This document shows, one piece after another, positions 33,001 through 42,000 of a stretch of DNA of 64,000 bases. The position numbers are program-made. The stretch is from an uncultured Candidatus Saccharibacteria bacterium. Its GTDB lineage: Bacteria; Patescibacteriota; Saccharimonadia; UBA4664; CAZJNH01. How positions within the stretch are numbered: the first letter of the stretch is position 1; the number at the start of each line of letters is the position of its first letter. The stretch lies in contig CAYZIN010000002.1 of assembly GCA_964478595.1 (NCBI GenBank), forward strand, positions 5,855-69,854, read 5' to 3'.

Positions 33001-36000
33001 AGACGAGAAAAACGCCGCTCTTGAGCTAGCCGCTAACGGCTCGGCGGATGTGGTGATTGGTACTCACGCTCTAATTTCGGAAAAAGTTGATTTTAAAAAC
33101 CTTGGCTTAGTGGTAATCGACGAGCAACATCGCTTTGGTGTGGCCCAACGGCAGGAGCTTAAACGAAAAGCCACCAAAATGCCGCACCTACTTTCAATGA
33201 CAGCCACCCCGATTCCACGCAGTTTGGCCTTAACCGTTTACGGTGATTTAGACCTTACGGTTATCGATGAGTTACCACCCGGTCGTCAGACAATTATCAC
33301 TAAAGTAGCGCGGCGGGCTGAACGCGATGGAGTTTACGCCGAAATCGACGGGCAAATTGAGCAAGGCCGCCAAGTTTACGTCATTTGTCCCCTAATCGAA
33401 GAATCAGAAAAGCTGGACTACAAAAGCGTCGAACAAGAAAGCGAGCGACTAAAAAAAACGGTCTTTTCACACCGCCGGATTGCACCCTTGCATGGCCGGT
33501 TAAAGTCGGAAGAGAAAGACGCAGTCATGAGTGAGTTTGCGGCCGGGAAAATCGACATTTTAGTTTCAACGACCGTCATTGAAGTCGGCATCGACGTTGC
33601 CAACGCGACAGTTATGTTAATCGAGGGCGCCGATCGCTTTGGCCTGGCCACCCTACACCAGCTGAGGGGTCGGGTGGGGCGGGGAGCGCATCAATCGTTT
33701 TGCTATTTAACCTACGAAAACTACACCCCAACGGCTGCTGAACGACTAAAAGCCATGGAAAAATATCACGACGGCTTCAAACTGGCCCAAATCGACCTGG
33801 AGATTCGCGGTCCAGGCCAAATTTACGGCCACGCCCAACACGGACTGCTCGACTTGCAACTAGCCGACATTTCCGACACCAAGTTGCTGGCTCAAGTAAA
33901 AGAATTGGCTGCGGAGTTTTTACAAAATCCTAATGTTTTGCTAGAATATCCGGCGATGTTTGAACGTGTTAACCAACTTAAAGCCGTCACCTCACTCGAC
34001 TAATGTATTCAGGAATCGTCAGCAAACACCGCACCATTAAGCGGATGGGAATCCACCAGCGCTTCGATATGGCTGCGTTTGCAATGATCGCAAACTATAT
34101 CAAGCCCGAAACCTTCCCCTCGCTTAAACAAATTCTGCACTTCGAGGGAGTGAATGGCCCGGATGGCTTGAAGTTAAAAACACCCCACAAAACCGAGGGC
34201 AGCCACATTTATGATCCCGAGCTGGGTGGAGGTGATGTACCTAGAAAAATCGAGACTCACTACCAGGCGTTGGTTAAGTCTTTGGTTCAAGCCGACCATG
34301 TTCGGGCTTCGTTTGAGGCCAGCTGGTTGGCACACTATATTACCGACGGACTTTGTCCGGCTCACCACTATCCTCTTGATCAGCTGAAAAAAGAGCTGTT
34401 TGGGCCCGAATCTGAGCACGGTTTTCTCAAACGGCACTTTCAGTGGTTTGGTCAAAAAGGCGCCATGAGTACTCACGCAAACTTTGAGATGGGAGTGTCC
34501 GCTGCGCTGCTTTTTTCGCCTTTAAAGTTCCATCTTGACTCAGACAAATTGGCTCAAGCTCGCCGCCTTGGGCCCCTCCAATTTTTTCGCCAAGAGGCCA
34601 AAGAAGTGGCCAAACTGGATTTGTACGAGCAATTTTGCAAAAAAGGCTGGACTACTAAAATCGCTCGCAGTATTAAAGAATTTATTGCCCCTCACGCGAC
34701 CCAAGTGATCGGGATTGTCTGGCTGCTGGCGTATTTAGAGGCCAGCCAAGCTCGAGCCACAACCTAATGCGGATTATTTCTGGTGAGTTTAAGGGGAGGG
34801 AGCTAAAGGGCCCTTCCAGCCGCCTGACGCGTCCTTTGAGCGATAAAGTACGCGGTGCTTTGTTTAACATTCTAGGTGACGTTGCCGATTGGTCGGTGCT
34901 TGATGTTTACGCCGGTACCGGTGCGGTGGCGTTTGAGGCTTTAAGCCGCGGCGCCAAGTTTGCCGAAGCAATCGAATCCAACAAATCCGCTGCTAAAGTC
35001 ATCCAAGCCAACGCCAAAACTCTGAATGCCGCGGATCGGTTAAATCTTGTGGTTTCGGAGGTAGAAAAGTGGCTTGATTGGCCAATGAATAAACCGGCGG
35101 AGCGTTACGATTTAATCTTTGCCGATCCCCCGTATACTCAGCTCAACCAGCTGGTTTTGATTAGGCTTAGTAACTATCTAAAAACCGAGGGGATTTTGGC
35201 GGTTTCCCATTCCAGTAAACAAGAATCACCGGTTCTTGAAGGTCTCGAACTTATCCAAACTAAAACTTACGGCGACTCCGCCTTATCTTTTTACCGGTTA
35301 CAATGAAGTCATGAAAAAGCCGGATCTGCTTGATCGATTGTTTAGGGTTGGGATTATTCTCAAGGGTCTTGATGGGCTGCTGGAAATTATTGGCGGGCTG
35401 GCCCTATTTTTCGTCTCACCGGCGGCCCTTAATCGGCTAGCGATTGGGTTAACTGCGCATGAGCTGTCGCAAGATCCGCATGATTTTATCGCTCGTCACC
35501 TATTGCGGTCGGCGGCTAAGCTAAACGGCCACGCGGTAGTTTTTGGTGCGCTTTATTTATTGAGTCATGGCCTAGTGAAGATCGTGTTGGTCGGCGCGCT
35601 TTTGAAAAATAAACTCTGGGCGTACCCTTGGATGATCGTTTTTTTGTTACTTTTTATTGTCTATCAACTTTATCGACTAACTATCGAGCCAACCTTCGGT
35701 CTAAGTGTGTTAACTATCTTCGATGCTATTATCGCCTGGCTAACTTGGCGGGAGTATCAAAAACGGGTTAAAATCGATCAGCCGCACAGCTAGGGCGAGT
35801 GGTGAAATGGCAGACACGCTAGGTTTAGGACCTAGTGGGGTAAAACCCGTGGAGGTTCAAGTCCTCTCTCGCCCACCAATTTGCAGTCTAACTGCAACTT
35901 TCTATCTGTTGAAAGTTCTAGTGCTAAGGGTCTTGTAAGTGCTTACGTTCCGAACGCGCTAAAGCTTCTAACAGATAGAAAACGGTTCTATTCCTACGAA

Positions 36001-39000: not shown

Positions 39001-42000
39001 CAACTCGATGAGCAGCAAGTTGCCTCGCGGCTCCAGACCTTCGGTGACACCGAGCGTCACATGACCCAGCTCGCCCAGACCACGCAGTTCGTCCACGTCT
39101 TCTAGGCGTACAACACTTCTCTCGTTACAGGGAGGCGGGAGACCTAAGAGGCCGGCTCACTCGACATCCAGTCGAGATAGAGTCCGGTCTCTTTCCTTTA
39201 GCACTTATGCTGGCACTCGAAGCTGTATTTTGCTAGAATTGTCGGCCTATGCCAGCCAAAGTTATTACTAAAAAAGACACCGAAACTACTATTGAAGTTG
39301 GCTTAAAAGCATCCGAACTTGAGCCAATTGTTAAGCAAGTTTTTGAGCAACTACGGCCCAGGGTTAAGGCTGCCGGTTTCCGTCCCGGTAAAGCGCCGGA
39401 CACTATCGTCGAGCGCGAGCTTGGCAGTAACACAATCCAGTCCGAAGTCTTAGAAGCCGCCACTTCCCGTAGTTATTCGCAGGCGGTTAATGATTTAAAG
39501 TTACGAGTGGTGGCTTATCCCGAAGTTACGCTGAAAAAGTTTGTGCCCTACTCTGAACTTGAATACACCGCCAAGGTTGAAGTTTTGCCGGAAGTGAAAT
39601 TACCAGATTACAAGAAGTTAAAACTGACCAAGCCAAAGGCTGAGGTTAAGGGCGAAGAAGTTAACGCCATGATCGAAGATCTTCGGGTTCGTCAGGCTAA
39701 AAAAACCGTTAAGCAAACCGGAGCCGAGATGGGCGACGAAGTGAATATAGACTTTGAGGGCAGCTTGGATGGCAATGTTTTGCCGGAGGCGACTTCCCAG
39801 AGTTTCACACTGCGGCTGGGTAGCGGACGTTTAGTCCCTGGTTTTGAGGATCACCTAGTTGGCAAAACCACCGACCAAGAAACCGAGTTTGATATCAAAA
39901 TGCCAGCCGATTATCACGGCAAAGACGTGGCAGGCAAAACGATTCACTTCAAAACTAAAGTCAATGCCGTTTGGCAAATCGAACTCCCGAAAGTCGATAA
40001 AGAATTTATAAGTGAAATTAGTCCATTTGAAAGCGAAAAAGAGCTACGTAAAGACATCGAAGCCAAACTGAAGGGCCAAAAAGAGGATCAAATTAACCAG
40101 CAGTATGAAAAAGATATTTTGGACGAATTGATTAATAAGTCGAACTTTCCGCTGCCGACAAGCCTGGTTCACGACCAACAGCACCGGTTAATCGGGGAGG
40201 TCAAACAAAATATCGAAAATCGCGGCATGGGCTTTGAAGAATATCTCAAGCTGTCTAACACCACCGAGGAAAAGGTTGAGCAAGAGGTTAAACCCGAAGC
40301 CGAGCGCCGAGTGCGACTAGCTATTTTGCTTTCCGAAATTGCCCGTGCCGAGGATCTTTCTTTACCAGACAAAGAGCTAAACGACGAGATAACCAAGCTG
40401 AAGTCCACATATTCGGATCCTAAGGTTCACGAGGAGCTTGATACTTCCACTGGCCGCGAAGGCGTTTATAACCATTTAATGAGCCAAAAGGTAATTGATC
40501 GTATAATTAGCTACACGGAGAAGAAATGAAGAACGAATCGATTTTAATTCCAACGGTTATTGAAAAAACCAGCATGGGGGAGCGGGCCTACGATATCTAC
40601 TCTAGGTTGTTAAAAGACCGCATTATTTTTCTGGGTACGCCGATCGACCAAACAGTAGCAAACCTGGTGATCGCCCAGCTGCTGTTTTTAGAGAGTGAAG
40701 ATCCCAAAAAGGAGATTAAGCTCTACATTAACTCGCCTGGTGGTGAGGTTTACGCCGGGCTGGCCATTTACGACACGATGAACCTGATTAAGCCAGCCGT
40801 TTCGACGATCTGTGTAGGGATGGCTATGAGTATGGCGGCGGTTCTGCTGGCTTCTGGCGAAAAAGGTAAGCGTTTGGCGTTGCCAAATTCGAAGGTGATG
40901 ATTCATCAGGGTTCGGCCGGATTTGAAGGCACACCGGTTGATATAGCTATCACGGCTAAAGAAGTCATGGCCATGCGCTCTAAACTAGACGAAATTTTGG
41001 CCGAGCGTACCGGCAAACCGCTTTCCCAGGTCAATAAAGACACCGACCGCGACTACTATATGAATGCTGAAGAGTCTAAAGCCTACGGTATCGTCGACCA
41101 AATCATCTCCAAACAATGAAGCTGGTCACGTTACTCTTAACGTGTAGCAATCAGGTAGAAGCCGATAAGGTTATCGATGTTCTTTTGAGGAAGCAATTAA
41201 TTGCTTGTGCAAAATCTATTCCCGTATCGTCGAAGTATCGATGGCAAGGCAAAATCGAACACGGATTCGATCGAGGGGAAGTTCGACGCAATCGAGAGCG
41301 AGATTAAAAAGATTCACAGTTATGACACTTTTGTCCTCACCGCTCTGCCGGTCATCGAATCCTCCGCCGGCGTCACTGACTGGGTGGCTGAATCCGTCCA
41401 TGAAGAACGATAGGTTCCGGAAAGCGCGTGGCGGCTGGTCGAGGATGCTCGATATTGGCTGCGAAAATTGTGGTCAGCACATCTGCTTTTATCAAAAAGA
41501 TGGCCCCGGGCCGCTCAAACGAATGTACCTTGATCGGATCGGCGGCCGTTCGACCGGCAGTGGTTCGCTGGTCTGCCCAAACTGCAACGATGTTCTGGGC
41601 GGGAAAATAATCTACAAAAAAGAGAACCGGCCCGCTTACCGCTTATTCGTCGGCTCCATTACCAAGAAAATTATCGCCAAACAGTAGTACAATACCCAAA
41701 TCGTAGAGGCGGACCGAGGAGAGTCATGTTTGACATTAAGGCATTGGACGAACTGCTTTGGGAGTGCACTTGGCCGACGGCTGTTGACGCGGATAATTTG
41801 CCGGAAGGTGTTCAGGTCGTTAGTGTGCACTTCTTCAGCCTCGCAGTCGACAAGTCGAAGGCACACGCTAACAAGCACCGACTCGAAGACCTCTTGAGGG
41901 AATACCCGAGCGAAGCATGGGGCCACCCCCTGCATCCGCTACGGGAAGGGCCAAGCTACATCGAGGTCGGCGGCGCCGTCGATAGCCAAGACAGAGCGCT

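Follow-up and report, generated by a model that had tools for sequence, protein, structure and literature searches.

A probable mosaic junction between tRNA-Leu and tig in an uncultured Saccharimonadia bacterium, with a widespread protein family as a candidate defence gene

The DNA considered here is a stretch of 64,000 nucleotides (the window) from a metagenome-assembled genome of the Saccharimonadia (TM7, Patescibacteria). The named homologues of its tig product all belong to Candidatus Saccharimonadia, and the closest ones show 65%, 64% and 59% identity. The subject is the segment from tRNA-Leu(UAG) to tig (35793-39248). It contains a non-coding spacer, a peptidase S51 frame, a gene for a 420-amino-acid (aa) protein, an operon encoding a 122-aa protein and a 38-aa cysteine-rich peptide, and a zinc-ribbon open reading frame (ORF). 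Each product of the region forms a singleton cluster at 90%. An earlier note on this DNA had described the whole segment as an island, perhaps a decayed integrative element, at the 3' end of the tRNA; the 122-aa gene, a doubtful 65-aa ORF and the 80-aa zinc-ribbon ORF were absent from that description. The comparison with relatives indicates that the segment is probably a rearrangement-prone junction composed of three modules of different age, and not one decayed integrated element. The 420-aa gene, which belongs to a large uncharacterised family, is the main lead of the locus.

Genes and features of the junction

The gene for tRNA-Leu(UAG), at 35793-35878 on the plus strand, is recognised by ARAGORN and by the Rfam model RF00005 (55.8 bits), as the earlier note had it. 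It is 100% identical in L008 (GCA_964547425.1), the nearest of the relatives compared. The tRNA gene begins on the final base of the TAG stop codon (35791-35793) of a DUF2127 membrane protein gene (35311-35793, plus strand). A tRNA promoter would have no space there, and the tRNA would therefore have to be transcribed by read-through. A non-coding spacer follows on the same strand (35879-36041), with a terminator-like hairpin at 35881-35897 and a long hairpin of 83 nucleotides (nt) at 35899-35981 (fold z = -4.5); an inverted repeat was also found in the spacer. Between the window and L008, 145 of 158 spacer nucleotides are identical (92%), and the first 57 nt after the tRNA, ATTTGCAGTCTAACTGCAACTTTCTATCTGTTGAAAGTTCTAGTGCTAAGGGTCTTG, are identical throughout (100%). 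Its conservation exceeds that of the synonymous sites in the neighbouring S51 gene, whose coding DNA is 79% identical. An Rfam search of 35-40 kb at E <= 1 returned the tRNA as its sole match and assigned the spacer to no family. The ~160-nt spacer may be an undescribed structured RNA or a functional RNA or DNA element, and its unusual conservation makes it the second lead of the locus.

The S51 frame (36009-36584, plus strand) matches PF03575 at E 6e-15, with 55.9 bits against a cut-off of 23.9, and is by profile a member of this family; it lies far under the equivalog cut-offs of PepE and cyanophycinase. The GESAG nucleophile-elbow motif and the following His are present. The frame is open for 191 codons from 36009, and the Pfam match begins 19 residues before the first ATG (36132). 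Between the preceding stop codon (36006-36008) and this ATG the frame contains no ATG, GTG or TTG, which agrees with the earlier description of family-like sequence ahead of the first ATG and no canonical start. Position 36132 is residue 42 of the open frame and residue 36 of the L008 orthologue, a 190-aa protein with an ATG start, to which homology begins at ~36036. The 5' damage that had been suspected is visible in the alignment. At the start of the gene L008 reads ...AAACACAGCGAATGAAGTCCAAATTCGTC... and the window ...AAACACGACAAGATTTGTC..., 10 nt shorter and with the ATG gone. The gap lies exactly over the ATG of the L008 segment ...GCGAATGAAGTCC..., and at its junction in the window AAACACGACA is followed directly by AGATTTG. 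At the other end, homology is lost one codon ahead of the window's stop, and L008 runs five codons further. Since a 10-nt deletion has removed the ATG and the last five codons have been replaced at the junction with the adjoining segment, the gene is most likely a young, recently inactivated pseudogene. Residual translation from a non-canonical codon would reach a very low level at best; ACG at 36030 is a possible site, at 6-9 nt from a GAAGGGAA that has been retained upstream of it, the distance varying with the end assigned to the Shine-Dalgarno core.

An unlikely alternative is that the S51 gene is functional, with translation starting at a non-canonical codon (ACG 36030, CTG 36045 or ATC 36009) or at the internal ATG 36132 (150 aa), or that its ATG was lost by assembly error. 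The frame is wholly open over its 191 codons, which weighs against inactivation and would be compatible with residual function or an assembly error. In addition, GESAG and the His of the triad region are kept, the Shine-Dalgarno-like sequence persists upstream of ACG, and the gene callers accepted the 150-aa version. Among 185 codons aligned with L008, 56 differ only synonymously and 38 non-synonymously, an excess from which purifying selection is deduced. This signal, however, integrates the entire divergence time and is compatible with recent inactivation. A canonical start is missing before residue 42, the gap falls on the very ATG of the relative, and ATG 36132 has no Shine-Dalgarno sequence; a start there would drop the first beta-strand region covered by the Pfam model. 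The young pseudogene remains the preferred reading of the S51 frame.

An operon on the minus strand comprises the 122-aa gene (38290-38658), the 38-aa ORF (38163-38279) and an intrinsic terminator (38113-38152). The sequence of the small product is MELRIFCGVCGRPERDEGGCSNKKCRRGKKKQSAQRKD, with the pattern CxxC-x9-C-x4-C and a basic tail. Its ORF starts 10 nt after the stop codon of the 122-aa gene, a TAA that overlaps AAGGAGG. The resulting arrangement, AGGAGG (38290-38285), 5 nt and ATG, is that of other genes in the window. The terminator has a 12-bp stem (38125-38152) with nine G-C pairs followed by T8 (38113-38120), and qualifies as intrinsic. In L008 the same position encodes a 42-aa peptide with 55% identity, in which all four Cys and GGCSNxKCRRGK are kept; the 20-codon core shows five synonymous and five non-synonymous changes. 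The Shine-Dalgarno sequence is also kept, as is the terminator hairpin, where one stem change converts a G-T pair to G-C. Because peptide, Shine-Dalgarno sequence and terminator are all conserved, the 38-aa ORF can be regarded, on comparative sequence grounds, as a real small gene missed by the NCBI annotation. The peptide with its AGGAGG and a terminator of its own had already been recognised in the earlier note, and its conservation in a relative now adds to that description. It illustrates how standard annotation can overlook a conserved small gene.

Judging from its residues, the peptide probably binds one zinc via its four Cys, and the basic tail would contact nucleic acid or an acidic partner. 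It is similar to no Pfam or NCBIfam family, a KIN17 zinc finger hit at E 0.039 being treated as noise, and tblastn against plasmids gave no match. In L096 (871-1017) and L097 (~1020-1169), two further loci with a 122-aa homologue, the slot is taken by an unrelated hydrophobic peptide in which a WYD motif is conserved; its length is 46-48 aa, and the call in L096 is 46 aa. The 122-aa gene is therefore not strictly dependent on the CxxC peptide, and the small gene is replaceable.

The 122-aa protein found itself alone in a word-index search, and 14 relatives in an exhaustive HMMER search of 1.84 billion representatives. Weak matches to PF03992 were obtained for 6 of the 14 family members (best E 5.7e-4) and none for the window protein itself. 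Compared with the PDB, the family profile has SnoaB and an ABM protein at the top (E 0.14-0.15); a hit of the protein to phrog_37700 at E 0.004 was treated as noise. These profile similarities suggest that the protein is probably a divergent dimeric alpha+beta-barrel (ABM-like) protein. Syntenic homologues are present in L008 (2629-2997), L096, L097 and L100. The subclade linked to tig and tRNA-Leu (window 38290-38658, P0245, P0246, P0247 and L008) ends in a C-terminal ...(A/P)TC(E/D/K), which is absent in distant members.

The 80-aa zinc-ribbon ORF (CPDCG...CTPC; 38863-39105, plus strand) lies directly upstream of tig. ORFs at the same position occur in L008, L009, L096 and L097 with 25-31% identity, and the exact product has been called in a Logan assembly. 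Library scans (PHROGs, PADLOC, NCBIfam) of the 420-aa, 122-aa, 38-aa and 101-aa products and of the 114-aa frame containing the zinc-ribbon ORF gave nothing usable. A strong hairpin followed by CUCUUUCCUUU was found at 39146-39193 (plus strand; fold z = -5.2 for 39100-39250), in agreement with the hairpin placed before tig in the earlier note. A promoter scan placed a promoter-like site, CTGGCA-18-TAGAAT, at 39210-39239. Given its U-rich tail and the promoter-like site after it, the simplest reading of the hairpin is as terminator of the zinc-ribbon ORF. The gene tig begins at 39249 on the plus strand and is followed by clpP.

Upstream of the DUF2127 gene lie recG (31964-34003), a phospholipase-C-like gene (34003-34767) and rsmD (34767-35306), all on the plus strand. 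The 254-261-aa protein between recG and rsmD is conserved in at least two genomes of the clade (window 34003-34767; L009 2278-3063) and matches zinc-dependent phospholipase C weakly (PF00882, E 6e-5, under the cut-off). Elsewhere in the window, the minus strand at 16473-18601 carries five small ORFs (66, 70, 93, 85 and 99 aa), each preceded at 4-5 nt by a perfect AGGAGG and none with a Pfam match.

The 420-aa gene and its protein family

The 420-aa gene occupies 36589-37851 of the minus strand. Its product had been called an orphan, a label that no longer applies: more than 344 homologues were found at E <= 1e-3 with ~40-51% identity, the best 120 all at E <= 1e-97, together with 475 confirmed metagenome loci of G+C content (GC) 0.31-0.70. 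The family has hundreds of members in Actinomycetota, Pseudomonadota, Bacteroidota, the candidate phyla radiation (CPR) and metagenomes, and is confidently foldable without a solved-structure match. The window protein aligns with it end to end (41-50% identity), and none of the 38 invariant columns is altered in it. The earlier statement that it has no recognisable motif thus stands for Pfam, NCBIfam, PHROGs and PADLOC, where no model matched, and fails for the family, given these invariant columns. The defence HMMs of PADLOC-DB 2.0 gave no match to the protein at E <= 0.1, their matches being limited to neighbours in other genomes, and the exact product is not on record. Hosts of the family include Streptomyces, Nocardia, Rhodococcus and Paenarthrobacter, plasmids of Mycobacterium, Agrobacterium and Tenacibaculum, and metagenomes; in several hosts the GC of the gene is below that of its locus. 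The family is absent from cultured phages and rare in IMG/VR, where it has five loci. An actinobacterial donor was considered, the named matches being from Streptomyces, Nocardia and Rhodococcus, and was not supported, as the closest sequences (46-51%) are metagenome contigs of GC 0.43-0.53.

Some database records, among them L099 (NZ_AP023275.1, 6007-7233), P0090 and P0095, label members of this family as AAA family ATPase. As a Walker A motif is present in none of 56 aligned members, the label is unsupported and probably a propagated misannotation.

Across ~80 loci of the family, no recurring neighbour and no conserved small upstream ORF was observed, and the family is a stand-alone gene. 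An obligate two-gene system was rejected, since no neighbour family keeps a fixed position in as many as three independent loci. Also rejected was the 65-aa ORF (37903-38100, minus strand) as a conserved partner or antitoxin, tblastn on all loci being empty. This doubtful ORF starts with GTG and lacks a Shine-Dalgarno sequence; a longer 101-aa reading of it crosses the terminator. It has no Pfam, PHROGs or PADLOC match, is not in the protein collection and resembles nothing in the fetched loci; small ORFs upstream of 420-aa homologues elsewhere are unrelated to it and to one another. Just past the terminator, an extended -10-like motif, TGAGATAAT (38105-38113, minus strand), read from the sequence, could drive the 420-aa gene. 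Its AGATA core aligns with the L008 segment between terminator and tRNA, and the motif could be a leftover tRNA promoter now facing the 420-aa gene.

The neighbourhoods of the family carry the gene signature of defence islands. Within two genes upstream are found GajA/GajB, a type I restriction endonuclease, DRT UG13, PDC-S19, AbiTii, three Ymh (HEPN) genes and AbiJ_NTD3, and also integrases, resolvases and IS630-type transposases. Within two genes downstream are a CBASS cyclase with a 2TM effector, SIR2 with HerA, BovA, SoFic and PDC-S53, and also PDC-M30B/M41B, a SacI restriction endonuclease with a C5 methylase, and a TOTE primase.

The AlphaFold2 model of the protein is of high confidence, with a predicted local distance difference test score (pLDDT) of 93.6 and a predicted template modelling score (pTM) of 0.88. 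Searched with Foldseek as a whole protein, it has no significant match in the PDB or BFVD, none being better than E ~0.08. The N-terminal unit is modelled as helix-strand-helix-strand, and the C-terminal 180 residues are predicted to be helical. The middle alpha/beta domain, without known counterpart, holds most of the invariant polar residues (E136, Y138, R139, N140, D141, D150, R194, D202, H210, Q211 and H229 form the set). In the C-terminal part, R357, R360, P363 and H365 are invariant among 56 sequences and form the motif R360-Q-K-P-A-H365, in which Q and A are nearly invariant. In both models, RQKPAH spans the last part of helix 343-361 and the loop that leads to helix 373-399. In HEPN domains the motif Rx4-6H, with a polar residue after R, lies where helix 3 ends and the loop to helix 4 starts, helices 2 and 3 often have inserts between them, and Ymh and DUF3644 are listed as HEPN families (PMC3710099). 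The 420-aa family shows Rx4-6H with a polar residue after R. Its predicted helices (246-265, 287-303, an insert, 343-361 and 373-399) would fit the HEPN description at the level of secondary structure, and genes of both Ymh and DUF3644 were found beside its members.

These features lead to a tentative proposal, in which the family would be an undescribed, widespread single-gene anti-phage system of the abortive-infection type, combining an N-terminal and middle fold absent from the PDB with a divergent HEPN-like RNase (RQxPAH), here captured by an ultra-small episymbiotic CPR bacterium. The N-terminal and middle domains would sense infection, and the C-terminal RQxPAH domain would act as a metal-independent RNase. 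By this analogy the protein is proposed to act like a single-protein HEPN abortive-infection effector; it is not filed as a HEPN member. Several results weigh against the proposal. The Pfam HEPN models match none of the 56 family members. The model of the C-terminal domain (pLDDT 92) gave no Foldseek match better than E ~0.8, and the HEPN entries 2hsb, 5yjc, 4nqf and 8oz7 appeared at E 1.6-4.5 with TM <= 0.3, amid TetR and vinculin-like bundles. Alignment of this domain with one Ymh protein by hhalign gave a probability of 0.3%. The link with defence is itself drawn from gene neighbourhood, counted without a matched control set.

The protein may instead be another kind of island passenger, a possibility that is likewise doubtful: a regulator, a DNA-binding or partition-like protein, or an addiction toxin of a mobile element. 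The lack of matches to known defence HMMs would fit such a role, as would the roughly three quarters of neighbourhoods that lack a recognised defence gene, and the modelled N-terminal helix-strand-helix-strand unit could bind DNA. Four of 56 members weakly match DUF3375 (best E 0.0019; JetA-like helices) and a JetB chain came up at E 0.66, but these matches are far below significance. Bona fide defence systems, moreover, occur within two genes of the family at high density and diversity, and the invariant polar constellation, including R357, R360 and H365, argues for an enzyme over a scaffold. The family is a testable candidate for a new defence gene, and its presence in Saccharimonadia bears on how reduced episymbionts acquire immunity.

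Synteny and origin of the stretch

The loci upstream of tig were compared with those of five relatives (L008, L009, L010, L102 and L103), and further loci carrying 122-aa homologues were added (L096, L097, L100 and L101). A contig scan using tig returned Firmicutes matches alone (26-29% identity), and the relatives were reached via protein matches. In L008 (tig 65% identical) the order is Trypsin_2, S51, tRNA-Leu, the 42-aa peptide and a 123-aa protein on the minus strand, then the zinc-ribbon ORF and tig on the plus strand; this contig stops 3.6 kb upstream of tig. L009 (tig 59%) has recG, the phospholipase-C-like gene, rsmD, tRNA-Leu, the zinc-ribbon ORF and tig, with 570 bp from rsmD to tig. 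The space from tRNA-Leu to tig in L010 (tig 48%) is filled by PemK, GH16, MazE and PfkB together with unknown genes. L102 and L103 (tig 46-47%) have unrelated genes upstream of tig, and tRNA-Leu is absent there. The short contigs L096 and L097 carry the zinc-ribbon ORF and, divergently, the 122-aa homologue (47% and 37% identity), the small peptide and tRNA-Leu(UAG). L100 and L101 have tig and the zinc-ribbon ORF and, divergently, the 122-aa homologue, a helix-turn-helix protein and a 67-aa CxxC-x8-C-x4-C protein. The tRNA has the same direction as rsmD and tig in L009 and L010, as in the window, and is placed directly downstream of the peptide terminator in L008, L096 and L097. No DUF2127 gene separates rsmD from the tRNA in L009 or L010.

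The content upstream of tig, or from rsmD/tRNA-Leu to tig, is different in each of the five relatives, and the variability assumed for this locus is confirmed. The side upstream of tig is a synteny breakpoint in Saccharimonadia. Within the subclade, tig is accompanied by the 122-aa gene with a small peptide downstream, and by the zinc-ribbon ORF. The interval from clpP to rpoB is a second variable spot (window 41120-42707, ~1.6 kb, GC up to 0.58). It has three to four ORFs without Pfam match, among them a 160-aa product with two CxxC pairs, a 145-aa product and a hydrophobic one of 104 aa. The spot measures ~200 bp in L008 and holds a MFS transporter in L010, L102 and L103.

The comparison with L008 divides the stretch into three parts. 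The block common to both genomes is exactly 35793-36580, with tRNA, spacer and S51; it is inverted relative to tig between them and has unrelated DNA on both flanks in each. The segment at ~36581-38100 (~1.5 kb), with the 420-aa gene, has no counterpart in any relative, and homology to L008 stops sharply on both sides of it. The 420-aa gene is absent from the loci of L008-L010, L102 and L103. The homology breakpoints are the tRNA 5' end, the S51 3' end and the position after the peptide terminator, and do not include the tRNA 3' end. The presence/absence polymorphism is confined to the ~1.5-kb segment, the rest being common to at least one relative.

The origin of the stretch can be proposed as follows. 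The first module would be the old tRNA-Leu/spacer/S51 block, in opposite orientation to tig in the nearest relative, whose S51 gene lost its ATG by the 10-nt deletion and its last five codons at the junction with the second. The second would be the window-specific insert, most likely a horizontal gain through illegitimate or homologous recombination and not through an integrase. Horizontal gain is favoured because the family is taxonomically scattered, stands alone, and lies in variable regions and defence islands. A single-protein anti-phage effector would be its most likely cargo. The third module would be the vertically inherited operon of the lineage, from the ABM-like gene to the translationally coupled peptide and the terminator, divergent from the zinc-ribbon ORF and tig. 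Relative to L008, this would involve an inversion bounded by the tRNA 5' end and a point past S51; the DNA after S51 also differs, with the 420-aa gene here and Trypsin_2 there. Several points weigh against this scenario. No repeats, integrase or transposase are visible as a transfer mechanism. The 420-aa gene has the GC of the window (0.529 and a mean of 0.517) and is no base-composition anomaly; the gain was therefore not recent or came from a donor of similar composition. Two close relatives were available for comparison and the L008 contig is short, so that the inversion may have run either way and the events may have followed another order.

That nothing was acquired, and that the six ORFs are old clade genes with the relatives differing by differential loss and inversions, is distinctly improbable. 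The normal composition of the 420-aa gene and the lack of flanking repeats would agree with it, as would the gene loss and synteny breaks seen throughout Saccharimonadia. Against it stand the absence of the gene from every relative's locus compared, a best homologue of only 51% identity in a family scattered over actinobacteria, plasmids and metagenomes of GC 0.31-0.70, and the sharp ends of the L008 homology around the 1.5-kb segment.

Least probable of all, and largely contradicted by synteny, is a single decayed integrative element at 35.8-39.2 kb that entered at the tRNA-Leu 3' end and later lost integrase and attR: the locus is variable and beside a tRNA, tyrosine integrases lie beside 420-aa family members in other genomes, and L010 has toxin-antitoxin genes at the same place, yet L008 has kept S51, spacer and tRNA together as one block, the operon, its terminator and the zinc-ribbon ORF keep their synteny with tig in three to five relatives, composition is unremarkable, and the breakpoints lie elsewhere. 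As tRNA, spacer and S51 are one conserved block, the gene directly 3' of the tRNA is not cargo. The absence of an integrase and of a tRNA-end direct repeat, reported earlier, was confirmed: no ORF of 35.8-39.2 kb has an integrase or recombinase domain, and a local search for attR (blastn-short) gave 8-9-nt chance matches in 36-40 kb, the longest in the window being 12 nt and ~15 kb away. Of the whole of 35793-39248, the ~1.5 kb with the 420-aa gene and the doubtful small ORF can be retained as window-specific, the remainder being lineage-conserved. As a genome feature, the mosaic junction represents ordinary plasticity, with a variable junction, a young pseudogene and one acquired accessory gene.

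Comparison with known systems

The S51 frame resembles peptidases of the S51 family (dipeptidase E and cyanophycinase) in its score above the PF03575 gathering threshold and in GESAG with the following His. It differs from them as a short form (190 aa in L008) below the PepE and cyanophycinase equivalogs and, in the window, by the missing start and last five codons. The 122-aa protein shares with ABM proteins (PF03992; SnoaB and ActVA-Orf6 type) a length of ~120 aa, and its first beta-strand 'vvI.W.Ikp' and the segment 'N(V/I)G.W.s...F' align with SnoaB; unlike them it reaches no threshold, and its family has its own invariant E40, W74, E94, R98, R100 and R109. The 38-aa peptide may be likened to small zinc-ribbon or zinc-knuckle proteins such as the ribosomal protein bL36, which has 37-38 aa and the pattern CxxC-x12-C-x4-H. 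Both are very basic and of similar length, with four ligand positions (CxxC...C-x4-C in the peptide), but the peptide gene lies downstream of the ABM-like gene and not in a ribosomal operon.

Like tRNA-linked islands, the stretch adjoins a tRNA, varies in content among relatives and carries an accessory gene of a mobile family. In contrast to such islands, it lacks an integrase, an att repeat and a compositional signal, the acquired piece lies away from the tRNA 3' end, and the greater part of its length is conserved in the lineage.

The closest parallel to the 420-aa family may be found among the HEPN abortive-infection proteins (AbiD/F, AbiJ, AbiV, AbiU2 and Ymh-type; Anantharaman et al. 2013, PMC3710099). 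The family differs from these in having no Pfam HEPN profile or significant structural match; its RNase role would be by analogy. The helix-2 motif Ex3[KR] is not evident, and most of its invariant residues lie outside the putative RNase part, in the middle alpha/beta domain. The family agrees with them in standing alone within defence islands and in the succession of a variable N-terminal part and a C-terminal helical domain. By its predicted helices it would also share the position of R-x4-H, where one long helix ends and the loop to the last one follows, and the insert between what would be core helices 2 and 3.

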